NCBI GenBank assembly: GCA_031393955.1
Contig: JANMWI010000034.1
Coordinates: 433 to 64,432 of the forward strand
Direction: 5' to 3'
DNA: 64,000 nt
Source of the DNA: Acidobacteriota bacterium
GTDB lineage: Bacteria > Acidobacteriota > Vicinamibacteria > Vicinamibacterales > 2-12-FULL-66-21
Positions within the stretch are counted from its first letter, which is position 1. Every line of letters starts with the position of its first letter. The notes below the pieces were generated by a model. The model ran no database searches and was not told the DNA's origin. It saw nothing but the letters and a program-made list of their open reading frames with translations. Positions 10,061 to 35,808 of the stretch are shown piece by piece. The position numbers and the translations under genes were made by a program.

Positions 10061-10073
10061 TTCGACAATCCCT

Positions 10074-10838: not shown

Positions 10839-10949
10839 TCGGCCGATCCGGCTGATCGTCCTCCGACCCCTCCGCGCCTTCGGCCTGCGCCCTGCCGCCG
10901 TGCCAGGATGCCGCCATCGCGGCGCGACGCCAGCGTTCGGCCACGAGGA

Positions 10950-11646: not shown

Positions 11647-11654
11647 AGGCGGCG

Positions 11655-20200: not shown

Positions 20201-23200
20201 GCAACACGGTGACCGGCAGCAGTGCGTCGGTCGCGCTGACGATTGGCACGAACCCAGGCGGCGGCGCGCTCACCTGCACATCGAATCCCGTTACCGCCGT
20301 GGCCGGCGTGGCGGCGTTCGCCAGCTGCCGCATCGACCTCGCCGGGGCGGGCTATACGCTGGTCGCGTCGAGCCCGGGACTGACGTCGGCGACGAGCGCG
20401 CCGCTGACGATCAGCGTCGGGCCGGCGGCCAGGCTGACCTTCACCACCAGCCCCGGCGGCGCGACCGGCGGGGTCGCCCTCGGTATTCAGCCGGTCGTGA
20501 CCGTCCAGGACGCCGGTGGCAATACCGTCACCAGCAGCACCGCGTCGATCGCGCTGGCGATCGGCACCAACCCGTCGGCGGGGACGCTGAGCGGAACCGC
20601 CACCGTTGCCGCGATCAGCGGCGTCGCGACCTTCAGCGGCCTGTCGATCGACAAGGCCGGCGCGGGCTACACGCTCACCGCCGCCAGCACGGGCCTGACC
20701 GCCGGCACCAGCGGCAGCTTCAACATCACCGTCGGTCCGGCGGTGAAGGTCGGCTTCACCACCAGTCCCGGCAGCGCGGCCGCCGGCGCCGCGTTCAGCC
20801 CGCAGCCGGTCGTGGTCGTGCAGGATGCCGGCGGCAACTCGGTGACGACGAGCAGCGCCTCGATCACGCTGACGATCGGCACCAACCCTGGTGGCGGCAC
20901 GCTGAGCGGCACCGCAACGCTCAGTGCCGTGAACGGCGTCGCGACGTTCAGCGGTTTGTCGATCGACAGGTCAGGCACCGGTTACACGCTGACGGCCGCC
21001 AGCGCGGGCCTGTCCGGGGGGACGAGCGCGGCATTCAACATCACGTTCGCGGCGGCGTCGCGGGTCGTCTTCACGACTGCGCCCGGGGGAGGCACCGGTG
21101 GCCTGGCCTGGGCGGCGCAGCCAGTCGTCACGGTCCAGGATGCGTTCGGCAACACCGTCACCATCAGCACCGCGTCGGTGACGCTGGCGATCGGCGCCAA
21201 CCCCGGCAGCGGCACGCTCGGCGGCACAGCGACGCTCAACGCGGTCGGTGGTGTCGCGACGTTCAGTGGTCTGTCGATCGACAAGGTCGGCACCGGCTAT
21301 ACGCTGACCGCCGCCAGCGCCGGCCTGACCGGGGCAACCAGCGCGACCTTCAACGTCACGCTCGGACCGGCCGCGAAGGTCGCCTTCACGACCCAGCCGG
21401 CCAGTTCCACCGGCGCGACCGCGTTCCCCACCCAGCCGGTCGTGACCGTGCAGGATGCCGGCGGCAACACGGTGACCGGGAGCACGGCGTCCGTGACCCT
21501 GGCGATCGGCACCAACCCTGGCAGCGGCACGCTCGCCGGGACGGCGACGGTTACAGCGCTCGCCGGCGTGGCGACGTTCACCGGCTTGTCGATTGATAAG
21601 GCCGGCACGGGCTACACCCTGACCGCCGCCAGCGCCGGCCTGACCGGCGGCACCAGCAGCGCCTTCAACATCACCGTCGGAGCTGCCGTCAAAGTCGCGA
21701 TCACGACCAACCCGGGCAGCTCGACCGGCGGCGTCGCTTTCGCGCCGCAGCCGGTGGTCGCGGTGCAGGACGCGGGCGGCAACACCGTCACCACCAGTAG
21801 CGCGTCGATCACGCTGGCGATTGGCACGAATCCCTCGGCCGGGACCCTGGCTGGAACGGTGACGCTCAGTGCCGTCAGCGGGGTCGCGACTTTCAGCGGG
21901 CTGTCGATCAATAAGGCCGGCACGGGCTATACCCTGACCGCCACCAGCACCGGTCTGACCGGCGCCACCACGGCCGCGTTCAATATCACCGTCGGCCCGG
22001 CGACCCAGCTGGCATTTACCACCCAGCCGGGCGGCGGAACCGGCGGCACCGCGTGGGCGACGCAGCCGGTCGTGACGGTGATGGACGCGGGCGGCAACAC
22101 CGTGACGGCCAGCAGTGCCTCGATCACCCTCGCCATTGCCAGCAATCCCGGCGGCGGCAGTCTGAGCTGCACGGCCAACCCGAAGGCCGCGACCTCGGGT
22201 GTGGACACGTTCGCCGGGTGCCAGATTGACCTGGCAGGCACCGGCTACACGCTGAGCGCGTCGAGCGCCGGTCTTACGTCGGCGACGAGCAGCGCGTTCA
22301 ACGTCACGGTGGGTGCGGCGGTGAAACTCGGCTTCACCACCAGCCCGGTCAGCTCGGTCGCAGGCGCCGGCTTCGGCGCGGTCGTCGCGGTGCAGGATGC
22401 CGGCGGCAACACGGTGACGAGCAGCACAGCGCTCATCTCTCTCGCGATCGGCACCAACCCGGGAAGCGGCACGTTGAGCGGCACCGTCGCCGGAGTCGCG
22501 ACCGGCGGCGTCGCCACCTTCAGCGGCCTGTCGATCGACAAGGTCGGCACCGGCTATACGCTGACGGCGGCGAGCACCGGCCTCACCGCCGGCGCCAGCG
22601 GCAGTTTCAACATCACGTTCGCCGCGGCCGCCAAGGTCGTGTTCACGACGCAGCCGGGCGGCGGCACCGGCGGCACCGCATGGCCGACGCAGCCGGCCGT
22701 CACGGTCCAGGACGCGTTCGGCAACATCGTCACCACCAGCACCGCTTCGATCACGCTGGCGATCGGCACGAACCTGAGCGGCGGCACGCTGACCTGCACC
22801 GCCAACCCGAAGGCGGCGGTCTCCGGAGTCGCGACGTTCGCCGCCTGCCGGATCGACTTCAGCGGCACCGGCTACACGCTGACCGCGGCGAGCGCCGGAC
22901 TGACCGGCGCGACCAGCAGCACCTTCAACGTCACCGTCGGTCCGGCGGCGAAACTGGCCTTCTCAACCAGCCCCAGCAATTCGACCGGCGGCGTCGCCTT
23001 CGGCACCCAGCCATCAGTGACCGTACAGGATGCCGGCGGCAACACGGTCACGACCAGCAGCGCGTCGATCACGCTGGCGATCGGCACCAATCCTTCGAGC
23101 GGAACCCTTGCCGGCACCAAGACCATCAACGCCGCCAGCGGCGTCGCGACCTTCAGCGGCCTGTCGATCGACAAGGCCGGCACCGGCTACACGCTGACCG

Positions 23201-26200
23201 CCGCCAGTACCGGTCTGACCGGCGCGACGAGCGGCGCCTTCAACATCACGGTCGGCCCGGCGGCGAAGCTGGCGGTGACGACCGGCCCGGGCAACAGCGT
23301 CGCCGGCGCGGCATTCGGCACCTCACCGGCCGTCACCGTGCTGGACGCGGGTGGCAATACCGTCACGACCAGCAGCGTGTCGATCACGCTGGCGATCGGT
23401 ACCAATCCCGGCAGCGGGACACTCAGCGGCACCGCGACCGTGAGCGCCGTGAACGGCGTCGCCACCTTCAGCGGCCTCTCGATCGACAAGGCCGGCACCG
23501 GCTACACACTGACCGCGGCGAGCAGCGGCCTGACCGGGGCCACCAGCGGCACTTTCAACATCACCTTTGCCGCCGCCTCCCAGCTCGTGTTCACGACCCA
23601 GCCAGGCGGCGGCACCAGCGGGGCCGCCTGGACGACCCAGCCGGTCGTAACGGTCCTCGACGCGTTCGGCAACACCGTCACCAACAGCACGGTCTCGATC
23701 ACCTTGGCGATCGCCAGCAACCCCGGCGGCGGCACGCTGACCTGCACCGCCAACCCGAAGGCGGCGGCATCCGGCGTCGATGCCTTCGCCGGCTGCAGGA
23801 TCAGCAAAGGCGGCCTCGCCTACACCCTGACGGCGTCGAGCGCCGGACTGACGAGCGCCACCAGCACGAGCTTCAATCTGAACGATGCGACGACGACGAC
23901 GTTCAGTTGCGCGCCGTTCCCGACAACCGGCGTGGAGCTGAACGCGTCAACGACCTGCACCGCCACGGTTGCCGATACCGGCGCGACGTTCGGACCGCCG
24001 ACCGGCACGGTCGCGTTCGCGCGGGCCGGCGGCGCGGGGACGATCTCGGGCAGTCCCTGTACCCTGGCGGCCGCCACCGCCTCGACGTCCGCGTGCGCGT
24101 TCACGTTCACACCGACGTCGGGCACGAGCGGGACACTGACGGCGACTTATTCATCGGACAACGCCACCAACTGGGCGTCGAGCGCCAGCGCCGCCGGCGG
24201 CTACACCGTCATCGCGACTGACGGTTCAGGCACCGAGACGGTCAACATCACGACCGCGACCGCCGGGGCTACCGGGCTGAGTTTCGCGTTCACCTTCACG
24301 ACCGCCGCCGACGGCACGACCGGCTACGCCTCGGGCGCGCAGCTGACGCTGGTCATTCCCGCAGGCTGGACCGCGCCGCAGACGAGCAGCTCGGCTGGCG
24401 CCGGGTACATCAGTCTGTCAAACAACACCGGCGGCGGCGGCAACTGCAGCAACGGGACGACCATCAACAACATCTCGGGCACCGGACCCTGGACCATCAC
24501 GGTCGATATCCTCTGCGGCACGAACCGCATCTTCAAAATCAATTACGCCGCGGTGACCGCACCCACCGCGCCGGCCGCTTATTCGTTCGACGCCCAGACC
24601 AAGAACGCCAACGGCACGTTTGCCAGCGTCGCCAGCAGCCCGGTCGTGACGGTCGGCGCCGGCGCCGCGAGCAAGCTCGCGTTCACCAGTGCTCCGGGCA
24701 CGTCCACCGCCGGCGCCGCATTCGGCACCCAGCCGGTCGTCGTCGTCCAGGACCAGTACGGCAACACCGTGACGGGCAGCTCGGCTTCCATCACCCTGGC
24801 GATCCAGAACAACCCCGGCGGCGGCACGCTGTCGTGCACGGCCAATCCGAAAGCGGCGACGTCGGGTGTCGCGTCGTTTGCCGGGTGCAGCATCAACAAG
24901 ACCGGGGCCGGCTATACCCTGTCAGCCTCATCCACCGGGCTCACCGCCGCGACCAGTGCGTCATTCACCATCACTCCGGCCGCTGCCACGGTGCTCGCCT
25001 TCACGACCCAGCCGGCCGGCGCCGTCGTCGGCGCGGCGTTCACCACCCAGCCGGTGGTTACCAGCCAGGACGCGTACGGCAACAACTCGACCGTCGGTCT
25101 GCCGTCATCGTTGACGCTGACCATGACCATTGCGACCGGCGGCGGCGCGCTGGCCGGAACAACGACGATTGATATTGGCACCGCGGCGGCGAACGGCGTC
25201 GCCGCCTTCTCGACGCTCGAGATTGATACGGCGCAGACCAACACGCTGCAGGCGGCGGTCTCGGGGGGCGTGCTCACTGCGGCAACCAGCGGCGCGTTCG
25301 CCGTCGCCAGGGGCGTAACGGTGACGACCACCTCGAACGCCACTGCCAACTACGGAGCGTCGAACGTCACGTTGATCGCGCTGGTGACCGCGGGCAACGC
25401 GGCGGTCAACGAAGGAACCGTCACCTTTACCGTCAAGGACGGCGTTGGCACGGTCATCGGCACGCCGGTCACGTCGGCCATCGTCTCCGGCGGGAACGCC
25501 GCGGCAACCTTCGCGCTGGGCGCGACCGCGGCGGGCCGGTATTCGATCTTCACGACCTACAATCCGGCGGTATCGAGTCCGAATTTCAACGCCAGCAGCG
25601 GTGCCGCCGGAACGCTGACCCTGACGACCTCCGTGATGCGGGTCAGCTCGGGTGCCTATACCGGCGACGGGATCTCCGGGTCGCAAATTCAGTTGCTCGG
25701 CTTCGTCCCCGACGTCGTCATCGTCAAGGGGGACGCGGCGCAGGAGCCGGTGTTCTGGACCTCGACGATGACCGGCGGTCAGGCCAAGCCGATGAGCAGC
25801 GGCGGCGCCGCGGCGACAAATCTGGTTCAGGCGTCGATGATCAACGGCTTCACGGTCGGCACAGACGCCCGGGTCAATACGAACGGCGGCAGCTATTACT
25901 GGACCGCGTTCGGCGCGGCGACCGGCGGACTGGTCGTCGGCACCTACACCGGCAACGGCAGCGGCCAGAGCGTCAACAGCCTCGGCTTCCAGCCGGATCT
26001 GGTGATCGTCGCAGGTGCGGGCGCGACGACACCGGTCTTCCGCACTTCGGCGATCAGCGGAGCGGTGAGCCTGACGACCGGTAGCGCGCTGACCACGCGC
26101 ATCACCTCGCTCGACGCCAATGGGTTCACCGTCGGCACGGACGCGGCGGTGAATACGTCCGGCGTCGTCTACCACTACGCGGCATGGACGACTGCCACCG

Positions 26201-29200
26201 GCAAGGTCGCGGTCGGGGCATACGCCGGGAGCGCGGCGGCGCGGAATATCACCGGCCTCGGGTTCGGCCCGCAGGCGGCGATCGTCAAGTCGTATGACTG
26301 CACCACTGCGGGGGTCGAGCATTCGTCGGCGCTCGGTCCCGCCGCTGATGCCAGCCTGCCGTTCGACGCGTCGGGCGGCATCGCGACGGCGCGGATCACG
26401 ACGCTGCAGTCGAACGGCTTCGGGCTTGGCACCAACGGCGCCGTGAACGGCAGCGGCTGCAACTACGCGTGGATGGCGTTCGCCGGCGACGCCCCGACCG
26501 CCGTCAGGATGAAGTCGTCGTCGGCCACCCGTTTCGACTCCGGGACGTTCGTCGAATGGGCGACCGGGTTCGAAGCGGACAATCTCGGCTTCCACGTCTA
26601 TCGTGAAGAGGACGGCGTTCGGGTGCGGGTCAGCGACGGGCTAATCGCGGGGTCGGGGCTGCTGATGGGCCCCGGCGCGTCGGCCTCGGCGTCGCAGACC
26701 TACGGCTGGTGGGACCTGAAGCGCGCCAGGGATTCGAAGGCGACCTACTGGCTCGAGGATGTTGATTTGAACGGCTCGCGGACCTGGCACGGTCCGATTG
26801 CGCCGGCCGATGGCGCGACCCGGGAGCCGGCGAATCGGGCGCAGTCATCCCTGCTGAAGCAGCTGGGCAAGCGGGCGCCGCGGGCGGTGACCCGGCCGAT
26901 GCCGGCGGGCGGCAATACCGCGGTGACGACCGCCGCCATCCTGACGTGGGAGTCGACGTCCGGCGCGACCGGCTACGACCTCCGTTTCGACACCGTCAGC
27001 GAGCCTTCGGCGACGATTACCGGCCTGTCCGAGCCGTCATATGCGCCGCCCGCGATGGCGCCGGCGACGACTTACTACTGGCAGGTGGTGGCGCATTATC
27101 CCGACGAAGAGGTGACAGGCCCGGTGTGGGCGTTCACGACGGCTGTCCCGGCTGCGTCACTGCAGGATGCCGTCGGCGCGGCGCTGCCGGGGAGCGGCGG
27201 CATGACCGCGGTGACGATGGCTGTGGCGGTGCCGAACGCCGGGGTGCGATCGCAGCCGGCGGCCGTGGCACTCGCGCCCGCCGTTCCGGAGCAGGCGGCG
27301 GCGGGGGCGAGTGCAGTCGCGCCGGCCGCCGGCCCCGCGGTCACGTCCCGGGCTCCTGTCGCCGCGGCGGCGCCAATGATGCCGGCGGCGGAAGCCGTCA
27401 TCGCGGCGCCGGCGGCGCAGGAGAGCGCCAGCATCCCGCCGCGCGACGCATCGCAGGCGCCGGCCGCGGCGGGCGAACGAGGCGCTGTCCAGTCGGCGAC
27501 CGCGACCAGCCGCTGGATCGCGGACCCGCCGGCGCCGAGGAACGTGCGGGTGCTGGCGCCGGGCATCCCGTTGGAGGCGGCGCCCGGCGGAGCGCCGGCG
27601 GAGACGCCGGTGCTGTCTCCCGCCGCGACTCAGGCGGCCGTCGCCGGTGGTCCGTCGGTGAAATTGTCGGTGACCGCGGACGGCTGGTACCGCGTCCTGC
27701 TCGCGGACCTGGCGGCTGCCGGCCTGGCGGTGGATGCGCCGCTGCAGCTGTCTCTCGACGGTGTGGAACAGCCGATTGAGACGGTCACCGACGGCGTTGG
27801 CGGCGCCGCCATCGAGTTCTACGGCATGGCTGCCGACACTCCGTACAGCAACGCGCGTGTCTACTGGGTGAAGGGAGGAGGCGGACCGGTCCGGCGGGTG
27901 AAGCGGCTGCCGTCAGGCCTCGGGGGCGCGCCTGCAGCCGCCAGCTTCCCGTTCACGATCGAAAAGAAGGACCGCACGATCTATTTCGCCGCCCTGCTCA
28001 ACGGCGACGCCGACAACTTCTTTGGGGATCTCGTGACGAGCGAGGCGGTGGACGAGGCGATCGCGGTGAGGCATCTCGATCCGTCGGGATCGGACGCAGT
28101 GCTCGAGGTCACGCTCCAGGGGGTGACAGAGGCCGGCGCGGATGCGAATCACCTCGTCGACGTCCAGGTCAACGGCGTCCGCGCAGGACAACTGAGCTTC
28201 TCCGGCCGCCAGCGCGGCAGCCAGTCGTTCACGCTTGCCGCTTCGTCGCTTCGCGACGGCGACAACACGGTGACGCTGACCGCGCGCGGTGGCGACGAGG
28301 ACGTCAGCCTGGTCGACGTGATCCGGCTGACCTATCCCCACACCTATGGGGCGGAGGGCGATCGGCTGCGGCTGTCCGCCGCCGGTCAGCAGGCGGTGTC
28401 GGTCGGCGGGTTCAGCGGCGCGGCGATCCGGGTCATCGACATCACCGATCCGGCCGCCGCGCTGGAAGTCGTGCCGGCGGTGACGGCGGAGCCGGCCGGC
28501 TTCCGCGTGTCGTTCCAGGCGCCGGGATCAGGTCGCCGGACGCTGCTGGTCTTCACCGACGGCAATGTCCTGACGCCTGCCTCGACCGCCGGGAATGCGC
28601 CGTCACACTGGCGGGATGCCGCCAATGCGGCGGACTACCTGGTGCTGGCACCGGGCGCCTTTCACGGCGCGGTGGCGCCGCTCAAGGCGCTGCGCGAAAG
28701 CCAGGGTCTCGCGGTGTCGGTGGTCGATCTGGAAGACGTTTACGACGAATTCAGCTTCGGCCAGAAGCGCCCGGACGCGATCCGCGAGTTTCTGGTCCAG
28801 GCCAGCCGGACCTGGCGCCGCGCGCCGCGCTTCGTGGTGCTCGTCGGCAACGCCACGACCGACCCGCGCAACTACCTCGGCACCAACGAGCCCGACTACC
28901 TGCCGACGAAGCTGGTCACGACCGCGGTGCTCGAGACCGCGTCCGACGACTGGTTCGCCGATGCCGATGGCGACGGCATCGCGGAGCTGGCGATGATCGG
29001 GCGTCTGCCGGCGCAGAGCGCCGATCAGGCGGCGGCGATGGTCAACAAGATCGTCGCCTACGAGCGGGCCGACGCCGCGGCGTGGTCGAAGTCGGTCGCG
29101 CTCGTCGCCGACGCCAGCGCGCCGGGGGACCGCGACTTCGCCGGATCGAGCGCCCAGCTGCAGCGCGGCATCCCCGCCGGCTACGCGGTCAGCAATATCT

Positions 29201-29673
29201 TCCGCGGGCCGATGGGCACCGGCGCCGCGCGCAGCGCGCTGCTGAGCGCCATCAACGACGGCCAGGCGCTCGTCGACTACGCCGGCCACGGCTCGGTCGA
29301 CACCTGGCAGGACAATCTGCTGACCGGCGCGGACGCGCCCGCCTTCACGAACGGCGCGCGGCTGCCGGTGTTCGTGATGATGGATTGCCTGAATGGCTTC
29401 TTCCAGGGCCTCTTCCCCGAGGAGAGTCTCGCCGAGGCGCTGATCAGGACCCCGTCCGGCGGCGCCGTCGCGGTGTGGGCGTCGTCCGGCTTCACCGATC
29501 CCGGCAACCAGGCGCCGCTCAACGCGGCCTTCGTCCGCGAGCTGTTCTCCGGCGCGGGCCCGACGCTTGGCGAAGCGATTGCGGTCGCCAAGCGCCAGGC
29601 CTCCGACCCCGACGTCCGCCGGACCTGGCTGTTGTTCGGCGACCCGGCGACGCGTCTCAAGGGACGGCCCTAG
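17245..29673 (+). CDS. Giant secreted/surface protein: Kelch repeats + 16 Ig-like repeats + FN3-like + C-terminal peptidase C25 (gingipain-type) domain
   Basis: Uninterrupted 12,429-nt ORF (4142 codons). It starts with a signal-like N-terminus (RRTRPFAACTAVALLVAAALALRADA). Kelch-type repeats (RTGHTATLLxDGRVLVAGG) lie at about 17380-18400. Tandem ~105-aa Ig-like repeats lie at about 19455-25312. Three copies of an unknown ~95-aa module lie at 25630-26490. An FN3-like segment (TGYDLRF...TTYYWQV) and an Ala/Pro-rich linker (about 27140-27650) follow. The C25 catalytic region carries His (VDYAGHGSVDTW) and Cys (VFVMMDCLNGFF) motifs. Confidence 0.85.
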   Translation: MAAVRRTRPFAACTAVALLVAAALALRADAPQVPSRTWAPTGDLAHGRSGAAATLLPDGRVLVSGGLDQSEVTASAERYSAASATFLQTPVMQEARTGHTATLLLNGRVLVAGGLGAAGHALASIERYDPVVNAWIGGAGLHRARTGHTATLTADGYLILAGGEDAGIPTDSVELYEPLSGGVYAIDAPLSAPRSGHAAVTLGDGRMLIIGGSDGAHALSSVDIIDPYGGTITAGPPLATPRTGHTATMLLDGRVLVAGGSDGMTALTSAEIYDPATNTFAPAGGTLSAAREGHLAILLPHNNAVLIVGGAAAGEAVPSAELFVPWQGVRGRFFPTAPPSLGRIQAAGAALSFPADLTRRSGPHDGLILLAGGRAAPAATDPLRGAELYGFATVTTDKADYAPNRTVTISGAGWQPGETVSLVITEAGGPHRFGPFLAVADGAGRFQTDQFSTDLHDFELKFYLTATGSVSQAQTSFTDAQNATTTTLSCAPHAVTGLPLNVATTCTATVTDTGSPLNGPPTGTVAWNVATGPAKGTFNGDPCTLTAASASTSTCSVTYTPTNNKNGSIQAAYTSDTTANWANSSSAYSSYTVIAPDGSGTMTMTPTTVTAGTTGGTYSLTFRAASDGTVGYRAGSTATIQIPAGWTAPQSGAAGSPGYVSITGGNCPTRSISAISGTGPWIVTVDIVCGSNDTFILSYAGGGTAVTAPTAAGTYTFATQTQNEGGPLTDLAASPTVTVNPGAATQLGFTTAPGGGTGGTAWTAQPVVAVQDTYGNTVASSSASITLTIGTNPAGGALTCTANPKTAVSAVATFAGCRIDSAGVGYILAATASGLTAATSPPFDITVGPAAKLAATTSPSNSTGGTAFTTQPVITVQDAGGNTVTASSASVTLAIGTNPASGTLGGTATVAAVNGVAVFSGLSIDKAGTGYTLTAASAGLTGATTSAFNVTVGAAVKLAYTTAPGGGTGGTAWAAQPVVAVQDAGGNTVTGSSASVALTIGTNPGGGALTCTSNPVTAVAGVAAFASCRIDLAGAGYTLVASSPGLTSATSAPLTISVGPAARLTFTTSPGGATGGVALGIQPVVTVQDAGGNTVTSSTASIALAIGTNPSAGTLSGTATVAAISGVATFSGLSIDKAGAGYTLTAASTGLTAGTSGSFNITVGPAVKVGFTTSPGSAAAGAAFSPQPVVVVQDAGGNSVTTSSASITLTIGTNPGGGTLSGTATLSAVNGVATFSGLSIDRSGTGYTLTAASAGLSGGTSAAFNITFAAASRVVFTTAPGGGTGGLAWAAQPVVTVQDAFGNTVTISTASVTLAIGANPGSGTLGGTATLNAVGGVATFSGLSIDKVGTGYTLTAASAGLTGATSATFNVTLGPAAKVAFTTQPASSTGATAFPTQPVVTVQDAGGNTVTGSTASVTLAIGTNPGSGTLAGTATVTALAGVATFTGLSIDKAGTGYTLTAASAGLTGGTSSAFNITVGAAVKVAITTNPGSSTGGVAFAPQPVVAVQDAGGNTVTTSSASITLAIGTNPSAGTLAGTVTLSAVSGVATFSGLSINKAGTGYTLTATSTGLTGATTAAFNITVGPATQLAFTTQPGGGTGGTAWATQPVVTVMDAGGNTVTASSASITLAIASNPGGGSLSCTANPKAATSGVDTFAGCQIDLAGTGYTLSASSAGLTSATSSAFNVTVGAAVKLGFTTSPVSSVAGAGFGAVVAVQDAGGNTVTSSTALISLAIGTNPGSGTLSGTVAGVATGGVATFSGLSIDKVGTGYTLTAASTGLTAGASGSFNITFAAAAKVVFTTQPGGGTGGTAWPTQPAVTVQDAFGNIVTTSTASITLAIGTNLSGGTLTCTANPKAAVSGVATFAACRIDFSGTGYTLTAASAGLTGATSSTFNVTVGPAAKLAFSTSPSNSTGGVAFGTQPSVTVQDAGGNTVTTSSASITLAIGTNPSSGTLAGTKTINAASGVATFSGLSIDKAGTGYTLTAASTGLTGATSGAFNITVGPAAKLAVTTGPGNSVAGAAFGTSPAVTVLDAGGNTVTTSSVSITLAIGTNPGSGTLSGTATVSAVNGVATFSGLSIDKAGTGYTLTAASSGLTGATSGTFNITFAAASQLVFTTQPGGGTSGAAWTTQPVVTVLDAFGNTVTNSTVSITLAIASNPGGGTLTCTANPKAAASGVDAFAGCRISKGGLAYTLTASSAGLTSATSTSFNLNDATTTTFSCAPFPTTGVELNASTTCTATVADTGATFGPPTGTVAFARAGGAGTISGSPCTLAAATASTSACAFTFTPTSGTSGTLTATYSSDNATNWASSASAAGGYTVIATDGSGTETVNITTATAGATGLSFAFTFTTAADGTTGYASGAQLTLVIPAGWTAPQTSSSAGAGYISLSNNTGGGGNCSNGTTINNISGTGPWTITVDILCGTNRIFKINYAAVTAPTAPAAYSFDAQTKNANGTFASVASSPVVTVGAGAASKLAFTSAPGTSTAGAAFGTQPVVVVQDQYGNTVTGSSASITLAIQNNPGGGTLSCTANPKAATSGVASFAGCSINKTGAGYTLSASSTGLTAATSASFTITPAAATVLAFTTQPAGAVVGAAFTTQPVVTSQDAYGNNSTVGLPSSLTLTMTIATGGGALAGTTTIDIGTAAANGVAAFSTLEIDTAQTNTLQAAVSGGVLTAATSGAFAVARGVTVTTTSNATANYGASNVTLIALVTAGNAAVNEGTVTFTVKDGVGTVIGTPVTSAIVSGGNAAATFALGATAAGRYSIFTTYNPAVSSPNFNASSGAAGTLTLTTSVMRVSSGAYTGDGISGSQIQLLGFVPDVVIVKGDAAQEPVFWTSTMTGGQAKPMSSGGAAATNLVQASMINGFTVGTDARVNTNGGSYYWTAFGAATGGLVVGTYTGNGSGQSVNSLGFQPDLVIVAGAGATTPVFRTSAISGAVSLTTGSALTTRITSLDANGFTVGTDAAVNTSGVVYHYAAWTTATGKVAVGAYAGSAAARNITGLGFGPQAAIVKSYDCTTAGVEHSSALGPAADASLPFDASGGIATARITTLQSNGFGLGTNGAVNGSGCNYAWMAFAGDAPTAVRMKSSSATRFDSGTFVEWATGFEADNLGFHVYREEDGVRVRVSDGLIAGSGLLMGPGASASASQTYGWWDLKRARDSKATYWLEDVDLNGSRTWHGPIAPADGATREPANRAQSSLLKQLGKRAPRAVTRPMPAGGNTAVTTAAILTWESTSGATGYDLRFDTVSEPSATITGLSEPSYAPPAMAPATTYYWQVVAHYPDEEVTGPVWAFTTAVPAASLQDAVGAALPGSGGMTAVTMAVAVPNAGVRSQPAAVALAPAVPEQAAAGASAVAPAAGPAVTSRAPVAAAAPMMPAAEAVIAAPAAQESASIPPRDASQAPAAAGERGAVQSATATSRWIADPPAPRNVRVLAPGIPLEAAPGGAPAETPVLSPAATQAAVAGGPSVKLSVTADGWYRVLLADLAAAGLAVDAPLQLSLDGVEQPIETVTDGVGGAAIEFYGMAADTPYSNARVYWVKGGGGPVRRVKRLPSGLGGAPAAASFPFTIEKKDRTIYFAALLNGDADNFFGDLVTSEAVDEAIAVRHLDPSGSDAVLEVTLQGVTEAGADANHLVDVQVNGVRAGQLSFSGRQRGSQSFTLAASSLRDGDNTVTLTARGGDEDVSLVDVIRLTYPHTYGAEGDRLRLSAAGQQAVSVGGFSGAAIRVIDITDPAAALEVVPAVTAEPAGFRVSFQAPGSGRRTLLVFTDGNVLTPASTAGNAPSHWRDAANAADYLVLAPGAFHGAVAPLKALRESQGLAVSVVDLEDVYDEFSFGQKRPDAIREFLVQASRTWRRAPRFVVLVGNATTDPRNYLGTNEPDYLPTKLVTTAVLETASDDWFADADGDGIAELAMIGRLPAQSADQAAAMVNKIVAYERADAAAWSKSVALVADASAPGDRDFAGSSAQLQRGIPAGYAVSNIFRGPMGTGAARSALLSAINDGQALVDYAGHGSVDTWQDNLLTGADAPAFTNGARLPVFVMMDCLNGFFQGLFPEESLAEALIRTPSGGAVAVWASSGFTDPGNQAPLNAAFVRELFSGAGPTLGEAIAVAKRQASDPDVRRTWLLFGDPATRLKGRP
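18679..19455 (+). repeat. Module M1 (Cys-containing Ig-like domain + IPAGWTAPQ domain), copy 1 of a two-copy intragenic duplication
   Basis: DAQNATTTTLSCAP...TCTATVTDTG...IQIPAGWTAPQS...ISGTGPWIVTVDIVCGSND is collinear with copy 2 at 23884-24655. Confidence 0.7.
19455..23883 (+). repeat. Array A: 14 tandem ~315-bp (about 105-aa) Ig-like coding repeats
   Basis: The repeated unit is QPVVTVQDAGGNTVTxSSASITLAIGTNPGxGTLxGTATVxAVxGVATFSGLSIDKAGTGYTLTAASxGLTGATSxAFNITVGPAAKLAFTTxPG. The period is also visible as a ladder of 101-104-aa antisense ORFs, clearest from 20667 to 23807. Confidence 0.9.
23884..24655 (+). repeat. Module M2, copy 2 of the intragenic duplication
   Basis: DATTTTFSCAP...TCTATVADTG...LVIPAGWTAPQT...ISGTGPWTITVDILCGTNR parallels 18679-19455. 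Confidence 0.7.
24655..25312 (+). repeat. Array B: 2 further Ig-like repeat units following M2
   Basis: Units begin at TQPVVVVQDQYGNTVTGSSASITLAIQNNPGGG and TQPVVTSQDAYGNNSTVG. Confidence 0.75.
25630..26490 (+). repeat. Three tandem copies of an unrecognised ~95-aa module
   Basis: The shared pattern is G-x-Y-[TA]-G ... LGF-x-P-[DQ]-x-x-IV ... [IT]-x-[ST]-[LMQ]-x-x-NGF-x-[VL]-GT-[DN]-x-x-VN-x-x-G-x-x-Y-x-[WYA]-x-A-[FW]. Examples are LGFVPDVVIVK..INGFTVGTDARVNTNGGSYYWTAF, LGFQPDLVIVA..ANGFTVGTDAAVNTSGVVYHYAAW and LGFGPQAAIVK..SNGFGLGTNGAVNGSGCNYAWMAF. Confidence 0.7.
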
Positions 29674-31301
29674 TCTAGCGAGTCAGGCCGGCGCCTGAAC
29701 CACTTCGGCGCGCCGCGGACAATCCGGTCCAGGTAGGCGAGCGGCAGCAGCCGCGCCGGCGATCCCGCATACCGCGCGCGCATGTACTGCCGCGACGGAA
29801 ACAGGTGCTCCCGCAGCAGTCTCGCGCGATCGCCCCAGCGCCCGACGGACGCCAGGTCGGCACGAACGACGTCGAGAAACCTGGCACGGCCGCCGATGAA
29901 GCGCGCGGCGGGCTCCATCGCCCCGGGTTGCCCGAGGTGGGCGAGGACCTCCGGCGGGAGCGCGGTTCCGAACCGGTCCTGCGCCAGCGCGAGGCCGCGC
30001 GCCGCCACGGCCCGCATCCGCGCCTGTCCGGCGCGATCGATGAAGCGCACGCACTCGTCGGCAGCCAGCCGGCCGGCGAGCAGGTGGATGTCCCACAGCC
30101 AGAGCAGGTCGGGTGCGTCGTGATGGTGGGCGACGCGATGGATGCAGGCGAGCAGCAAGGCGTCGGCGTCGCCGAGCGTCCGCGCCGCCGGTCCGACCGA
30201 CGGAACCGGCACCGACCGTCCCCAGGCGTCGGCAAACGGCAGCGCATCGCCGAAGGCGCGCGCGTCGGAGACGCGCCAGTGGAGATCGACGAAGTGGTTC
30301 AGTCCCTGGCTGTCGGCGCGCACGTAGTGGTACTGGGCGCGCGCCAGCTCGCCGTCCGGTTCCCGCATCCGCCGATAGCCGCACTGCGCGAGCGCGTCGG
30401 CGGCGCAGTCGAGCGATGCCCGGTCGATCAACAGGTCGACATCGCGGCTCGGCCGCAGGTGCGGCTCGGGGTAGAGCGTCGCGGCAAGGCCGGCCCCTTT
30501 CAGCAGCAGGAACTCGATCCCCGAGTCGGCAAACGACGCGCTAATCCGGCAGAGCTCCCGGTGGCGCAGCAGGTCCCGCAGCTGCGCGTCGGCGATGCGC
30601 TGCTCGGCCCGGCGGCGCAGATCCTCCGGCAGCGGACTGGCCGCTTCGAGCAGCCTCGCGGCGAACAGCACGTCCACATCGTCGGTTGCGGCGCACGCCC
30701 AGAGCGCCGCCGCGTCTGCAATCGTATCCGCCGTCAGGGGGCCGGTCAGCGCGCGGCAGAGACGACGCTGCGGCGGGTCGCCGAGCGGCGCGGCTGATGA
30801 GGGAGACGCAAGCGATTCGGGGTCGCGGTCCGGGCGGCGGAGGAGCGGTACGGCGAACCGGGCGGCGATGCCGGCGATTCGCCGCAGCCGGGCGCGTGCC
30901 CCCGAGACCGGGATGGCTCGCCCGTTACGGGTGACGGCGACCACCGTGGCGAGCAGGTCGCGCTCGTCGATCGGCGCGTCGCAGCCCCCCTTGCCATCGC
31001 CGCGCAGGACGAAGTCCCGGCGGCCGTCGGCACGGCGCCTGACCGCGACCACCCGATGGACCAGCAGGCCGCCCGGCCGGCGCGCCAGCACGATCCCGCC
31101 GCGCCGCACCGCCTCCGGACGGATCGGCGCGATCGTCACGACATCGCCGTGGCGGATCGCCGGCGCCATGCTGCTGCCCTCGGCGCGGAAGCGGACCGCG
31201 CCGCCGCGGGCGAGGAGCTCGACGCAGGTGTCGGCGAAGAGCGCCGGATCCGCACTCACGACCACCGGCGGCGGGCTCGCGGCATCGGCGGCGCGTGTCA
31301 T
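29670..31301 (-). CDS. Fusion protein: N-terminal S24/S26 (LexA/signal-peptidase-like) serine peptidase domain + C-terminal uncharacterised nucleotidyltransferase (NTP_transf_5-type)
   Basis: Trimmed from ORF 29670..31973 to ATG 31301 (MTRAADAAS...), which forms an ATGA overlap with the upstream gene. The peptidase motif is AEGSSMAPAIRHGDVVTIAP...VLRGDGKGGCDAP. The nucleotidyltransferase motif is IEFLLLKGAGLAATLYPEPHLRPSRDVDLLIDRASLDCAADALAQCGY...HFVDLHW. Confidence 0.7.
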   Translation of the reverse strand: MTRAADAASPPPVVVSADPALFADTCVELLARGGAVRFRAEGSSMAPAIRHGDVVTIAPIRPEAVRRGGIVLARRPGGLLVHRVVAVRRRADGRRDFVLRGDGKGGCDAPIDERDLLATVVAVTRNGRAIPVSGARARLRRIAGIAARFAVPLLRRPDRDPESLASPSSAAPLGDPPQRRLCRALTGPLTADTIADAAALWACAATDDVDVLFAARLLEAASPLPEDLRRRAEQRIADAQLRDLLRHRELCRISASFADSGIEFLLLKGAGLAATLYPEPHLRPSRDVDLLIDRASLDCAADALAQCGYRRMREPDGELARAQYHYVRADSQGLNHFVDLHWRVSDARAFGDALPFADAWGRSVPVPSVGPAARTLGDADALLLACIHRVAHHHDAPDLLWLWDIHLLAGRLAADECVRFIDRAGQARMRAVAARGLALAQDRFGTALPPEVLAHLGQPGAMEPAARFIGGRARFLDVVRADLASVGRWGDRARLLREHLFPSRQYMRARYAGSPARLLPLAYLDRIVRGAPKWFRRRPDSLD

Positions 31302-32182
31302 CCGCCACTCCGCACGAAATCCAGGACGCCTCGATCTGGCACGAACGCCAGCTCCGCGAACGGCACGCGCTCGCTGACGGCGGCGAGGAACGAGAGCGAG
31401 AAGTCGAGTCCGGCGCGGCTGTAGAACGGCGGGAACGACCGCGCCATCAGCTCGGCGACGACCGCGGTCCGGCCGAACGGGGCGGCGGCGTTTTGCGCCG
31501 CGTGGCGGAGCACGAAGCCGCGCGTCAGCCTGGTCCGGGTCGGCGACGCCAGCGGCTCGTCGCCGTGCCAGGGGGTGCCGTACATCCAGATCTCGTTGTC
31601 GGCCTGCCGCAGGATGACGCGGTCGTCGCTGAGCACGGTGACGCCAGGCTCCGCCTCCCACAGCGTCGCGATCGTCGTCTTGCCGGCGCCCGAATGGCCG
31701 GCGAACAGGTAGCCGGCGCCGCTCGCGTCGCGGACGGCGCAGCCGTGAATCTCGACGCCGCGGCCGAGCGCCAGCCAGTTGGTGATGAGCAGTTCGTCGA
31801 GCGGATACTCGAGGGGATAAATCGGGGCGGCGGTGTCGAAGTACGGGGCGTGGAGGTGGACGGTGCCGGCGGCGAAGTCCCGATCGAAGACCGCGACCTT
31901 GTAGGGCGCGGATCCGAACACCGGCGAGGTGAAGCTCCAGGTCAGCTGCGCGCCGGTGGCGTGCAGCCGCCACAGCCCGCCGGAGTCGAACAGCGGCGGC
32001 CCGGACGGTGCCGGCGGACGGCTCGCCCAGGTGGCCGAGATCCGGATGTCCGGCGCGCCGCCGTCGGCGAGGAAGCGTGACACCGCCGCCGGCACGGTCA
32101 GGCGAAGCCGATCGTCGGCGCTGGTGACGGCGGCGGTGATGCCGCCGATCGCCAGGCGCACCTCCGCGGGCTCCCCGCTCAC
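31298..32182 (-). CDS. HPr kinase/phosphorylase-related (HprK C-terminal-domain-like) P-loop protein
   Basis: GTG start 7 nt after the small ORF's stop. P-loop motif YLFAGHSGAGKTTIATLW. About 290 aa, the size typical of stand-alone HprK-related kinases found next to PqqD-like genes. Confidence 0.7.
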   Translation of the reverse strand: MSGEPAEVRLAIGGITAAVTSADDRLRLTVPAAVSRFLADGGAPDIRISATWASRPPAPSGPPLFDSGGLWRLHATGAQLTWSFTSPVFGSAPYKVAVFDRDFAAGTVHLHAPYFDTAAPIYPLEYPLDELLITNWLALGRGVEIHGCAVRDASGAGYLFAGHSGAGKTTIATLWEAEPGVTVLSDDRVILRQADNEIWMYGTPWHGDEPLASPTRTRLTRGFVLRHAAQNAAAPFGRTAVVAELMARSFPPFYSRAGLDFSLSFLAAVSERVPFAELAFVPDRGVLDFVRSGG

Positions 32183-32189
32183 GGCGCGC

Positions 32190-32369
32190 CTACGACGTCA
32201 GCGAACTGCACGCCGACGGCACGCTGCACTTCGCCTGGCCGGGGCCGGAAATCTTGCTGGTCTTGCAGGAGCCGAGCACGGCCTCTTCGGGCCGCAGCGA
32301 GACCTGTTTTATTTCCGGTTTGGCATACGGCTTCCTGCTGATCGTGTCCCGCTCGGTCGGTTCCTTCAC
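32190..32369 (-). CDS. Candidate RiPP precursor peptide (59 aa), not in the supplied ORF track
   Basis: Read by hand on the minus strand. GTG 32369 is preceded by AGGAGG (32380..32375) with a 5-nt spacer, and TAG ends the ORF at 32192..32190. The translation is MKEPTERDTISRKPYAKPEIKQVSLRPEEAVLGSCKTSKISGPGQAKCSVPSACSSLTS. 50 of 59 codons end in G/C. It lies 48 nt after the rSAM stop and 7 nt before the HprK-like start. Confidence 0.65.
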   Translation of the reverse strand: MKEPTERDTISRKPYAKPEIKQVSLRPEEAVLGSCKTSKISGPGQAKCSVPSACSSLTS

Positions 32370-32417: not shown

Positions 32418-33692
32418 CTAGTGGCTCTGGCAGGACGAGCACCCGCCGCTGCCGCACCCGCCGCCGGACGCCGCCTTCGGCGCCGCCATCGGCAGGAACG
32501 TGCGCGATGCCGGCACCGGTGCCGGCACGTGCTGCTGCAGACGCGCGGCAGCGTCGAGAATCCCCTGATAGCCGCTGTGGCCCTCGCAGTATTCGCAGTC
32601 GCCGTGCGGCCGGACCGGCAGGCCGAAGGCGTGGGCGCGGAGATGCGCCACCTGGCACAGGAAGTCGACCGGCGACTCCGGGTCGCCGTTCTCGAGCTCG
32701 CCGTTGGCCGGGCACATGCCGCACATCGCCTTGAGCTCGCACTGGATGCACTTGGTCTGCCGGGTGATCTTCTTCGTATCGCGGACCCGCTGCAGGAACT
32801 CGTGCCAGCCGTCGCGGACGCTGCCGCCGCGCAGGCTGTAGGTGTCCTGCCGCGACAGCACGCAGATGCTCATCTCGCCGTTCGGATCGATCGCGAAGCT
32901 GTCGATGCCGCCGCCGCAGTGATAGAGCTGATCGCTCGTCTCGGGCGGATGGACCGGCCGGAGGAACTGCTCGGCGAACAGCTGCCACTCGGCCAGCCGC
33001 CGCGGGTCCTGCATGTCGAACTCGACGCACTCTTCGGGCGTCAGCCGGACGGCGAGCGGGCTCTGCGAGCAGTCGATGCGCGGGTTCATCTCGGTGTCGA
33101 AGCGGAATTCGACGCCGAGCTCCTCCGCGAACTGCTGCATCGCCAGCACTTCGTGCTTGTTGATCGTCACCGCGACGGTCTTCAGCTTGAGCGGCAGGCC
33201 GCGGTCGAGCAGCAGGCGGACGCCGCGCAGGCACTTGTCGTACGACCCCGGCACGCCGGTCAGCCGTTCGTAGGTCTCGCGGGTCCGGCCGTAGAGCGTG
33301 ATCTCAATCGCGAACGGCCGCCACTCGGCGAGGTAGTCGGCGATCGCCTCGGTGATGAGCGTGCCGTTGGTGAACAGGGTGATGATGAAGCCGGCGCGCT
33401 TGGCGTGGGTGTAGATCTCGAGGAAGTCGCGGCGCGCGAAAATCTCGCCGCCGGTGAGCAGCAGCCACAGGCAGCCGGCCTCCGCCATCTCGTCGAGCAC
33501 CCGGCACAGCTCGGCGGTCGAGAGCTCGCCGGCCTGCGCCGCGCGGTCGCCCATCGGCAGGTTGTTGTAGCAGTGCACGCACGCCAGCGGGCAGCGGCGC
33601 GTTACCTCGATGGTGGCGTTGAGCGGCGCCCGCAGGGTGCGGACCTGGGCGTGCAGCGACTGGCTGAAGGCGCCGTAGCTGATGGTCTCCAC
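32418..33692 (-). CDS. Radical SAM / SPASM-domain peptide-modifying enzyme
   Basis: CxxxCxxC motif (TRRCPLACVHCYNN). The SPASM Cys pattern is HCGGGIDSFAIDPNGEMSIC ... CIQCELKAMCGMCPA ... FLCQ. An extra Cys-rich C-terminal tail ends in SGGGCGSGGCSSCQSH. Confidence 0.85.
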   Translation of the reverse strand: METISYGAFSQSLHAQVRTLRAPLNATIEVTRRCPLACVHCYNNLPMGDRAAQAGELSTAELCRVLDEMAEAGCLWLLLTGGEIFARRDFLEIYTHAKRAGFIITLFTNGTLITEAIADYLAEWRPFAIEITLYGRTRETYERLTGVPGSYDKCLRGVRLLLDRGLPLKLKTVAVTINKHEVLAMQQFAEELGVEFRFDTEMNPRIDCSQSPLAVRLTPEECVEFDMQDPRRLAEWQLFAEQFLRPVHPPETSDQLYHCGGGIDSFAIDPNGEMSICVLSRQDTYSLRGGSVRDGWHEFLQRVRDTKKITRQTKCIQCELKAMCGMCPANGELENGDPESPVDFLCQVAHLRAHAFGLPVRPHGDCEYCEGHSGYQGILDAAARLQQHVPAPVPASRTFLPMAAPKAASGGGCGSGGCSSCQSH

Positions 33693-33694
33693 GG

Positions 33695-34015
33695 TCAGGC
33701 CCGTCCCGCTTCCGCCGCGTCGACCAGCTTGCGCTCGACCAGCGAGTCGATCAATTCGCGGACGTCCGCCGTCGCCGCCTCCGGGCCGATGTCGTACTCG
33801 GCGCAGAGCGCGTCGACAATTTCCGGCACCGACACCGGCTGCTGCAGCAGCGTCCAGACGCGGGCGGCCACCTCGGTCAGCGTATAGACGGCATCGAGGT
33901 CGCCGACCCGGCTGGACACGGGAATCAGGATCGTTTCCGAGCCGATGCGGCGGCTGACGAGACCGGGATGGGCCACGACGCGGCCGTCCACGCTCTCGAC
34001 GCTTGCGCGTGTCAT
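33695..34015 (-). CDS. PqqD-family peptide chaperone (RRE-type)
   Basis: 106 aa. Contains VYTLTEVAARVWTLLQQPVSVPEIVDALCAEYDIGPEAATADVRELIDSLVERKLV. GGAGG lies 4 nt upstream of the ATG. The stop is 2 nt before the rSAM start. Confidence 0.8.
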   Translation of the reverse strand: MTRASVESVDGRVVAHPGLVSRRIGSETILIPVSSRVGDLDAVYTLTEVAARVWTLLQQPVSVPEIVDALCAEYDIGPEAATADVRELIDSLVERKLVDAAEAGRA

Positions 34016-34087: not shown

Positions 34088-34882
34088 TCACCAGTGGTCG
34101 AGGGTGCCGTCGCGCCGGGCGCGCCGGACCCCCAGTCCGAACACCGCGAGGCTGAGCGGCACCCCGATCGCCGCAAAAATCGCCAGCCGGCCGAGATCGC
34201 CGGCGATACCGCCCGGCGGGGCGCCGTCGAGGACCGCCGCCCGCATGCCGTTGACGGCGTGCGTAATCGGCAGCAGCGCCGAGACGTGGCGGAGCGCCGT
34301 CGGCAGGTAGTCGACCGGATAGAGCACGCCGCCAAGCAGCCACGATCCACTGCCGAACAGCCACAGCAGCGGGTCGCCGCGCTTGAAGATCAGCGTGAAG
34401 GTCGCCGAGAGGATCCCGATGCTGCTGAAGGCGAGCAGCGACAGCAGCAGCACCAGCACCGCGGCGGGTACGTTCATGCCCGAGAGCGGGACGCCAAATG
34501 CCATCCCGATGATCAGGTAGACGCCGGCATCGAGCGAGGCGCGCAGGTACGGATACACCGACGAGCAGACCAGGAACGTCGTCGGCGAGGTCGGCGTCGT
34601 CAGCACCGCCTTGAGCGTGCCGGCCAGCTGGCTGCCTTTGATCGCCTGGGAGAAGCACACCAGGCAGGTCGTCATGTAGGCGTTGACGGTCATGCCGACG
34701 AGCAGGAACGGAAACGACGCGTAGCCCTGCGGCCGCGTCGTCCCGAGCAGCTGCGCGAAGAAGAAGAACGCCGCGACCGTGATGCCGACGTGCATCGCCT
34801 CGAGCGCGAACGACAGCCGGTAGCTGACGTCGGTGGCGAGATCCCGCTTGAGGAACGCGGCCAGCTTCCAGACGAGCGGCAT
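34088..34882 (-). CDS. ABC-2 type transporter permease
   Basis: Trimmed from ORF 34088..35719 to ATG 34882 (MPLVWKLAAFLKRDL), which forms an ATGA overlap with the ATPase stop. About six hydrophobic segments. Confidence 0.75.
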   Translation of the reverse strand: MPLVWKLAAFLKRDLATDVSYRLSFALEAMHVGITVAAFFFFAQLLGTTRPQGYASFPFLLVGMTVNAYMTTCLVCFSQAIKGSQLAGTLKAVLTTPTSPTTFLVCSSVYPYLRASLDAGVYLIIGMAFGVPLSGMNVPAAVLVLLLSLLAFSSIGILSATFTLIFKRGDPLLWLFGSGSWLLGGVLYPVDYLPTALRHVSALLPITHAVNGMRAAVLDGAPPGGIAGDLGRLAIFAAIGVPLSLAVFGLGVRRARRDGTLDHW

Positions 34883-35679: not shown

Positions 35680-35808
35680 ATTGCAGGCTGGACCGGCTTG
35701 TCCAGGTTATCGGCGGCACCGCCGCCGGTCTTTATGCATCCGCCGGAATCGGCGTCCCGGCGCGATCGCGCGACCGGCGTCCGGCGTTCTGCGATAGATT
35801 ACAGACCG

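Follow-up and report, generated by a model that had tools for sequence, protein, structure and literature searches.

What does an HprK-type kinase do beside a short peptide gene in an Acidobacteriota genome, and could its substrate be the serine at the very end of that peptide? In the window, that is, the whole 64,000-nucleotide stretch of DNA analysed, a 59-codon gene with a GTG start (32190..32369, minus strand) encodes a candidate precursor peptide with three cysteines. A sequence-only reading had described this peptide as ending in Ser, with an HprK-related protein carrying the P-loop GHSGAGKTT encoded 7 nt downstream, and had predicted phosphorylation or glycosylation of the C-terminus. 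Both gene-level statements were right. The frame closes on TCG (32193..32195, minus strand), the codon of Ser59 and proposed phosphorylation site, and on the stop TAG (32190-32192); after a gap of 7 nt, the kinase gene (31298..32182, minus strand) starts with GTG at 32182 and encodes 294 residues, of which 161-169 form the P-loop (31673-31702, minus strand).

The locus is predicted from its genes to be a seven-gene RiPP operon, and their content, order and coupling can be stated plainly (all coordinates on the minus strand). An ABC ATPase (34882-35679) and an ABC-2 permease (34088-34885), together a putative exporter, precede a discrete PqqD-type RiPP recognition element (33695..34015), whose best NCBIfam matches are lasso PqqD chaperones, below cut-off. 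Then comes a radical SAM/SPASM enzyme of 424 aa (32418..33692), which presumably acts on the Cys-containing core; it reached no curated NCBIfam cut-off (52/340 bits for PapB, 62/850 bits for AlbA). The precursor and kinase genes follow, and the TGA of the latter overlaps the ATG (31301) of a 543-aa fusion gene, as ATGA. Convergent with the cassette, a gene on the plus strand (17245..29673) encodes a giant secreted protein of 4142 aa with a C-terminal Peptidase_C25 domain; we consider it as associated with the finding and outside the cassette.

Judged by sequence, the most fitting description of this cassette is LPP-like machinery combined with a radical-SAM enzyme. LPP, the linear polyphosphorylated peptides, are the products of the lppA-K-B-S-D-N genes of Paenibacillus alginolyticus (Popov et al., Nat Commun 2026, PMC13381572). 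Both systems comprise a discrete PqqD recognition element, an HprK-like kinase, a SipW-type (archaeal-type signal peptidase I) peptidase, an NTP transferase and an exporter, and both are without a lasso cyclase. They differ in that LPP has no radical-SAM enzyme and is linear, whereas the window cassette has a radical SAM/SPASM enzyme, a fused peptidase and NTP transferase, and a core with three invariant Cys. In addition, the LPP exporter is MsbA-like whereas here an ABC-2 pair is found, and LPP has been reported from Bacillota only (PMC13381572), whereas the window is from Acidobacteriota and has relatives in many phyla. The two precursors share a YxxPx[VIL] leader motif, which in the window is a putative recognition-element-binding motif, YxxPx[ILV], spanning Y15-I20 (32310-32327, minus strand). 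The rest of the LPP leader consensus, YxxPxVLxHQxIxFETxxS, and the acceptor Ser3 after the cleavage site are unmatched in the window precursor.

The HprK-related label given to the kinase stood at the level of the fold and was weak by sequence. Indeed, the best sequence matches stayed below their cut-offs: HprK_rel_B gave 1e-7 and 31.4 bits against a cut-off of 200, Hpr_kinase_C 3e-3, hpr-ser 17.8/240 bits and ScmC 11.3/125 bits, and HprK_rel_A did not match the window's kinase. Its relatives were also under the cut-offs for HprK_rel_A, HprK_rel_B, ScmC and hpr-ser. A search of PDB sequences with the kinase profile retrieved HprK/P 1jb1 at profile positions 129-190 (E 1.8e-4), a weak, P-loop-centred match that stood beside ABC transporters. 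The AF2 model (pLDDT 94.3, pTM 0.91) was submitted to Foldseek, and all of the PDB matches listed were PEPCK or HPr kinase/phosphatase (E 1e-5 to 2e-4, probability 0.99-1.00). Structure prediction supports an HprK/PEPCK fold.

The kinase also looks active, as predicted from its fold and its intact catalytic motif. Across 19 relatives, H146, G162, S164, G167, K168 and T170 are invariant, so that the Walker A motif and the preceding strand with a conserved His, a feature of the superfamily, are both present; D186 is invariant as well and D187 is at least 90% conserved (D186-D187, 31622-31627, minus strand). The H-K-D-[D/E] motif is kept in 80 of 82 kinase relatives, and the remaining 2 have Glu for the first Asp. 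In lasso kinases, the His-Lys-Asp-Asp motif is needed (PMC9266682) and the D158A/D159A variant of PsmK is dead (PMC6993621); D186 and D187 would be the positional equivalents of these two residues. Likeness to the characterised kinases is remote by sequence: with a Butyrivibrio plasmid LPP-like kinase taken as a stand-in for PadeK, PsmK and LppK, identity was 26% over the catalytic half.

Such a protein might conceivably not be a peptide kinase at all, acting as an ATPase, a scaffold, or a kinase of a sugar or small molecule of the pathway. HprK-family sequence matches extend over no more than about 60 residues around the P-loop, and structurally the protein matches PEPCK, a small-molecule enzyme, just as well. 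We find this most improbable, as the protein retains the His-Lys-Asp-Asp motif of peptide kinases, most loci have the kinase gene directly behind the precursor gene, and the conservation of the terminal Ser would be left unexplained.

We then consider how closely the kinase is tied to the rest of the cassette. Genomic-context counts were drawn from genome collections, and related loci across phyla were collected with a radical-SAM alignment as query; none of our claims draws on the unpublished genome G152. Of the 59 closest loci retrieved with the radical-SAM enzyme, 57 carried the kinase, and contig ends cut the other 2. There were no kinase-less close relatives of the radical-SAM enzyme, and the kinase-less ones were too distant for precursor finding. 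All 82 kinase-bearing loci of this family, which come from Acidobacteriota, Binatia, Nitrospirota, Myxococcota, Planctomycetota, Omnitrophota, Verrucomicrobiota, Elusimicrobiota, Chloroflexota and others, had a radical SAM/SPASM gene (82/82). We count the kinase among the core genes of the cassette; its co-occurrence with this radical-SAM clade is near-universal.

Conservation of a C-terminal hydroxyl among homologous precursors had been named beforehand as a point on which the prediction would stand or fall, and conserved it is. All 93 database homologues of the precursor, which are metagenomic, end in Ser. A search with the kinase gave 29 further loci of the same phylum, and in each of them (29/29) a precursor-like ORF lay inside the 1.5-kb kinase flank, with 28 Ser ends and 1 Thr. 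Among the 82 kinase-bearing loci, 68 distinct precursor tails were detected by HMM, and 66 of these end in Ser or Thr (64 Ser, 2 Thr, 1 Pro, 1 His). Entropy falls to 0.41 bit at the last position of these tails, versus 3.3-3.4 bit at -3 to -5, and all six Ser codons are in use for the terminal residue (TCN 51, AGY 13). Terminal Ser/Thr is near-invariant, and the frequency of Ser is far beyond chance. In the kinase tree, the window falls in a 52-row clade (support 80), separate from a 12-row clade (support 94), and in the two clades together each of the 63 rows for which a precursor was identified has a Ser/Thr end. Exceptions are on long, deep branches save L096, whose 3 closest relatives end in Ser.

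Homology alone does not fix the site of the kinase, because the related LppK acts on the core Ser3 and not on the C-terminus. The window's kinase could likewise target another residue, either a Ser3-like position or an internal Ser/Thr of the core, and the conserved C-x-x-x-G-S end could instead serve recognition by the radical-SAM enzyme, the exporter, the neighbouring C25 peptidase or the like. Indeed, LPP is the only characterised cassette with the same set of peptidase, recognition element, kinase and NTP transferase (PMC13381572), and the last residue is Trp in an LPP-like precursor from Butyrivibrio whose leader has the same YxKPEL. Moreover, 7 loci on divergent branches pair an intact kinase motif with candidate precursors whose last residues are P, H, V, C, C, R and D; the site may be able to move, or else these candidates are wrong. 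The precursor family itself argues against another site. The invariant columns of the alignment are Y15, P18, L25, P27, E29, A30, L32, C35, K36, G42, C48, C54 and S59, which include the three Cys (C35, C48, C54) and K36, and no second invariant Ser/Thr was found in the 93 homologues or in the 29 same-phylum and the cross-phylum loci. Because the Ser preceding Cys35 varies (S/A/G/N/H/F), an LppK-type site at the leader-core junction is not conserved. In LPP precursors, the C-termini are highly variable, whereas in the window family the terminal Ser is invariant; of all core positions this is the best conserved, and it follows the kinase. We therefore regard a site elsewhere in the core as distinctly unlikely.

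The tail Ser/Thr being conserved, the kinase being a core gene and its His-Lys-Asp-Asp motif being kept, phosphorylation of the C-terminal Ser59 by the kinase is the best reading of sequence and gene context, and we hold it to be fairly probable. The precedent of the lasso kinases, cited in the sequence-only reading, holds: PadeK, ThcoK, SyanK and PsmK all place phosphate on the C-terminal Ser while the precursor is linear, and the hexoses found on the phosphate of pseudomycoidin need PsmN (PMC6993621, PMC9266682, PMC8498205). An invariant end on a freely varying core fits this precedent. For ThcoK, a free Ser at the terminus is a requirement.

The fusion gene may provide the subsequent steps. 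Its N-terminal part is a SipW/Sec11-type (S24/S26) peptidase domain (30897..31301, minus strand; PF00717, 6.9e-5; TIGR02228, 1.1e-8) with a GxSMxP motif containing Ser44 and invariant H82-R83 and G101-D102. It is likely the leader peptidase, by analogy with LppS of LPP, for which SipW-like leader peptidases were first described (PMC13381572). LppS itself depends on phosphorylation. The NTP_transf_5 domain that had been assigned to this gene was indeed found, C-terminal to the peptidase domain (29670..30719, minus strand; PF14907, 7.5e-41, residues 195-445), with 140.8 bits against a Pfam gathering cut-off of 31.2. It has a conserved DxD at fusion residues 287-289 (30435-30443, minus strand), and within the domain 89% of 27 relatives keep G99, D117 and D119; in PsmN, the D134A/D136A variant is inactive (PMC6993621). 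The domain was present within about 6 kb in just 24 of the 82 kinase-bearing loci, which makes the nucleotidyltransferase an accessory gene of the cassette and weakens the claim for decoration or glycosylation. No effect of LppN could be detected in a heterologous host (PMC13381572), and a direct activity of PsmN is unproven (PMC6993621). In sum, of the original prediction, the phosphorylation half gained support from tail conservation and the glycosylation half came out weaker.

The form of the tail raises another possibility, namely that the phosphate on Ser59 is transient. Gly is found at -2 in 51/68 tails and Cys at -6 in 47/68. Elimination of the phosphate could yield a C-terminal dehydroalanine, then either a lanthionine-type ring through the Cys six residues upstream or, by hydrolysis, a C-terminal amide. 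The logic of a kinase followed by elimination is established in class II-IV lanthipeptide synthetases, and in thiopeptides a C-terminal amide arises from a terminal Ser-derived Dha. This route appears highly improbable to us: no lyase or cyclase domain was detected in the seven operon genes with Pfam and NCBIfam, the co-occurring NTP_transf_5 requires a phosphate substrate in the pseudomycoidin precedent, and all characterised relatives retain the phosphate and extend it (PMC6993621, PMC13381572).

Returning to stable phosphorylation of Ser59, we infer the site, the order of steps, the radical-SAM chemistry and the group added by the nucleotidyltransferase domain as follows. The PqqD recognition element would bind the 59-aa precursor via the YxxPxI leader motif, and the radical SAM/SPASM enzyme would alter the three-Cys core. 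The HprK-fold kinase would transfer a phosphate from ATP, possibly several, to the side-chain hydroxyl of Ser59 while the precursor is still linear. The NTP_transf_5 domain may then add to this phosphate, as in the PsmN-dependent hexosylation of pseudomycoidin. The fused SipW-like domain would cut off the leader, and the ABC-2 transporter would export the product.

Three other systems share parts of this cassette. The lasso tailoring module of paeninodin and pseudomycoidin has a PF14907-type nucleotidyltransferase and a PqqD recognition element in common with the window, and the conserved precursor-terminal Ser of paeninodin-type kinase-bearing clusters is also a feature of the window family. 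In contrast, the paeninodin-type lasso cyclase (C, Asn-synthetase-like) and the B2 transglutaminase-like peptidase had no Pfam or NCBIfam match in the seven window proteins, in which the scaffold enzyme is a radical SAM/SPASM and the leader peptidase a serine peptidase. The SynChlorMet (SCM) cassette (ScmC, ScmD, ScmE, ScmF), a computational definition of TIGRFAMs/NCBIfam, shares a PqqD-like protein, one or more radical SAM/SPASM enzymes and an ScmC-type protein, but window scores stay far below the equivalog level (ScmC 11.3/125, ScmD 24.4/100, ScmE 89.4/400, ScmF 59.5/400 bits). Among the Atlas clusters nearest to the window's kinase, 17-51% of members carry the Pfam family 'ScmC' (PF27840). 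To our knowledge, SCM has no known precursor or product. Finally, sactipeptides and ranthipeptides share a radical SAM/SPASM maturase with a recognition element and a Cys-containing core; the window's maturase reaches no curated family cut-off. No report of kinase tailoring in sactipeptides or ranthipeptides was found in the literature.

Phosphorylated RiPPs are rare, namely microcin C, paeninodin, pseudomycoidin, phospeptin, salivaricin 10 and phosphorylated cyclic peptides (2025 survey, PMC12639078), which LPP joined in 2026 (PMC13381572). We found no literature description of a RiPP combining a radical-SAM enzyme with an HprK kinase. If our reading is true, C-terminal phosphorylation by HprK-type kinases would not be a peculiarity of lasso and linear peptides of Bacillota; a large family of radical-SAM peptides, spread over soil and sediment phyla, would share it as a core step. 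It would also define a new scaffold class, with cross-links and a phospho or phosphoglycosyl tail, and give a rule for finding precursors, that is, a YxxP leader and a ...G-S end beside the kinase. A broader proposal, unlikely as it stands, is that phospho(glyco)sylation of the C-terminal Ser, far from being optional tailoring, defines a very widespread, undescribed class of radical-SAM cross-linked RiPPs (>10 phyla) whose product acts with C25 (gingipain/PorU-like) peptidases. As one possibility, the phosphoglycosyl-tagged peptide would then be processed by, regulate, or be attached via a cell-surface cysteine peptidase, and would be no free antibiotic. In the precursor, the invariant Cys-Lys could be where a C25 peptidase cleaves.

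Incidentally, 30 of 100 related loci carry C25 peptidase genes in the same orientation as the cassette, and the repeated link with C25 peptidases and giant surface proteins hints at a role at the cell surface.

The minus strand of the window carries seven tightly packed genes, encoding an ABC ATPase (34882-35679), an ABC-2 permease (34088-34885), a discrete PqqD recognition element (33695-34015; PF05402, 1.6e-16), a radical SAM/SPASM enzyme (32418-33692), the 59-codon precursor (32190-32369), a P-loop protein of 294 aa (31298-32182) and a fusion protein of 543 aa (29670-31301), in which an N-terminal S24/S26 peptidase domain precedes a C-terminal NTP_transf_5 domain (PF14907, 7.5e-41). The precursor ends in TCG (Ser59) followed by TAG, 7 nt before the start of the P-loop gene, whose stop codon in turn shares an ATGA with the start codon of the fusion gene. 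The sequence-only reading had described the Ser end, the 7-nt gap, the P-loop gene and the NTP_transf_5 domain, and was accurate on every point. Two class-I SAM-dependent methyltransferase genes (35800-36648 and 36648-37433, plus strand; Methyltransf_11/25, 2e-20 and 2.9e-18) diverge from the promoter side of the operon. The radical SAM enzyme extends past its SPASM cysteines by a Cys/Gly-rich C-terminal tail of ~60 residues (32421-32600, minus strand), which is variable, since relatives align only up to residue ~350-420.

The proposed phosphorylation target, a C-terminal hydroxyl, was indeed conserved in homologous precursors. A peptide database search returned 93 homologues, and all 93 ended in Ser. 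Using the kinase as a query against 400 genomes of the same phylum, we found 29 further loci, all of which had a precursor-like ORF in the 1.5 kb flanking the kinase; 28 of these ORFs ended in Ser and one in Thr, even when their cores were barely alignable. To guard against the circularity of a kinase-seeded search, we used the radical SAM enzyme as a second seed. The kinase was present in 57 of the 59 closest loci, which span Acidobacteriota, Binatia, Nitrospirota, Myxococcota, Planctomycetota, Omnitrophota, Verrucomicrobiota, Chloroflexota, Desulfobacterota, one alphaproteobacterium and others, and the two exceptions were contigs ending at the radical SAM gene. The pooled set comprised 82 kinase-bearing loci, with an HMM-detected precursor in 69 and 68 distinct tails. 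The last residue of these tails was Ser in 64, Thr in 2, Pro in 1 and His in 1, giving an entropy of 0.41 bit as compared with 3.3-3.4 bit at positions -3 to -5; Gly was found at -2 in 51/68 and Cys at -6 in 47/68. All six Ser codons were in use at the terminal position (TCN 51, AGY 13), indicating that the residue is kept by selection rather than by recent common descent.

A less likely possibility was that the phosphorylation site lies elsewhere in the precursor. Yet no other Ser or Thr was invariant, and the Ser preceding Cys35 was replaced by Ala, Gly, Asn, His or Phe. On the other side, leader-motif searching of the 13 loci without an HMM-detected precursor gave candidates in 11, six with a terminal Ser and the other five ending in C, C, R, D and V. 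Together with the HMM-detected Pro and His tails, this makes seven loci in which an intact kinase motif accompanies a candidate precursor without terminal hydroxyl: either the site can move or the candidates are wrong. All these counts come from related loci, including a few duplicates (for example L047 and L086), and are not independent trials.

The label "HprK-related" given to the P-loop protein held for its fold and catalytic motif; by sequence alone the likeness was weak, as matches to HprK_rel_B (1e-7, 31 bits for a cut-off of 200) and Hpr_kinase_C (3e-3) showed. When the PDB was searched with a kinase-family profile, the match to HprK/P was no better than E 1.8e-4 and spanned ~60 residues. 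An AlphaFold model built from 19 relatives had a pLDDT of 94.3, and the Foldseek PDB matches listed for it were all PEPCK or HPr kinase/phosphatase. His146, the P-loop Lys168 and Asp186 were invariant in the alignment and Asp187 was kept in at least 90%; H-K-D-[D/E] was present in 80/82 relatives, the remaining two having Glu at the first Asp. Together they form the His-Lys-Asp-Asp motif that lasso-peptide kinases require according to mutagenesis (PMC9266682), and the D158A/D159A mutant of the lasso kinase PsmK is inactive (PMC6993621). Thus, the P-loop protein is a member of the HprK/PEPCK superfamily and looks catalytically competent. It nevertheless falls outside every curated family, as the window kinase and its relatives scored far below cut-off for ScmC, HprK_rel_A and HprK_rel_B. 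A non-peptide substrate was considered as an unlikely alternative for this kinase. In the kinase tree, a 52-row clade including the window (support 80) and a separate 12-row clade (support 94) together had a Ser or Thr end in 63/63 rows with an identified precursor, and the exceptions sat on long, deep branches, save for locus L096, the three nearest relatives of which have a Ser end.

Lasso-peptide kinases phosphorylate the C-terminal Ser of linear precursors, with little specificity for other parts of the peptide, and PsmN, a PF14907-type protein, is needed for the pseudomycoidin phosphate to carry one or two hexoses (PMC6993621, PMC9266682, PMC8498205). Linear polyphosphorylated peptides (LPP), defined in a 2026 paper, rely on a SipW-like signal peptidase I, a discrete recognition element, an HprK kinase, an NTP transferase and an exporter, without a cyclase; LppK phosphorylates core Ser3, which favours removal of the leader by LppS that the recognition element presents (PMC13381572). 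The window cassette holds exactly this gene set and its precursor leader shares the YxxPx[IVL] motif. The peptidase domain has GxSMxP (Ser44), an invariant His82-Arg83 and Gly-Asp, and among NCBIfam models it matches that of archaeal-type signal peptidase I best. In contrast with LPP, the cassette has an additional radical SAM/SPASM enzyme, a core with three invariant Cys, peptidase and NTP transferase in one protein, and an invariant C-terminal Ser, typical of lasso kinase clusters, instead of a junction-proximal one. An apparent LPP-type cluster in Clostridia, locus L132 (Butyrivibrio fibrisolvens plasmid pNP243, 179551-193967), shows the same contrast with the window cassette: it lacks a radical SAM gene, and its Cys/Pro/Tyr-rich precursor of 57 aa has a YVKPEL leader and a terminal Trp. 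Its other genes encode PqqD, an S24/S26 peptidase, a nucleotidyltransferase, a GT2 and the kinase, which is annotated as "hypothetical". This cluster adjoins polysaccharide glycosyltransferases.

In the interpretation that we favour and consider probable, the kinase would phosphorylate Ser59 of the linear precursor bound to the recognition element. Decoration of this phosphate by the NTP_transf_5 domain is a plausible, more tentative step in the window locus, where the domain has retained its DxD and forms one protein with the leader peptidase. The step is not general to the family, as NTP_transf_5 occurs in 24/82 loci. A less likely alternative is that phosphorylation is transient and leads to elimination. 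By analogy with the LPP "FET|" site and with Elusimicrobiota relatives reading ...FET-AAL..., cleavage may follow the conserved E-E-A of the leader, leaving a core of ~29 residues.

The proposed chemistry and machinery are already known. A full-text literature search found no description of a radical SAM RiPP tailored by an HprK-like kinase, and while LPP and paeninodins are stated to be Bacillota-restricted (PMC13381572), the radical SAM/kinase cassette occurs in many other phyla. Neither this combination nor its wide distribution has been described in the literature covered by this search. SynChlorMet, a computationally defined cassette on which our literature search found no paper, is a distant relative. 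Seven loci from Nitrospirota, Verrucomicrobiota and Aminicenantes (L093, L095, L096, L098, L100, L105 and L107) resemble its layout, in that the same kinase and PqqD are surrounded by two or three radical SAM/SPASM genes in tandem; their precursors are longer but mostly retain the Ser end.

A giant neighbouring protein (17245-29673, plus strand) ends in a Peptidase_C25 domain (PF01364, 3.3e-78). Such a domain adjoined the cassette in 30/100 related loci from many phyla (including L033, 4393-6099, and L091, 3815-5476), always on its strand and, in many cases, within a ~550-600-aa protein encoded immediately upstream of PqqD; the window differs, its giant gene being convergent with the cassette. 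This recurrence suggests a possible functional link: the C25 protein might, for example, be a second protease that cuts the precursor at its invariant Cys-Lys, or a PorU-like transpeptidase. Peptidase and NTP_transf_5 matches shared one open frame in L076, L078, L079, L093 and L106, as in the window; elsewhere they were separate genes or NTP_transf_5 was absent. In 12 Terriglobia loci (L054, L060, L062-L068, L072-L074; ~8100-13200), the S24-like match starts an open frame of ~5 kb reaching the stretch end, which may represent fusion with a giant protein or read-through into one. Parts of the window giant protein matched the stretch end in five of the 12, including its middle part in L054, L064, L067 and L068 and its C25 domain in L054 and L064.
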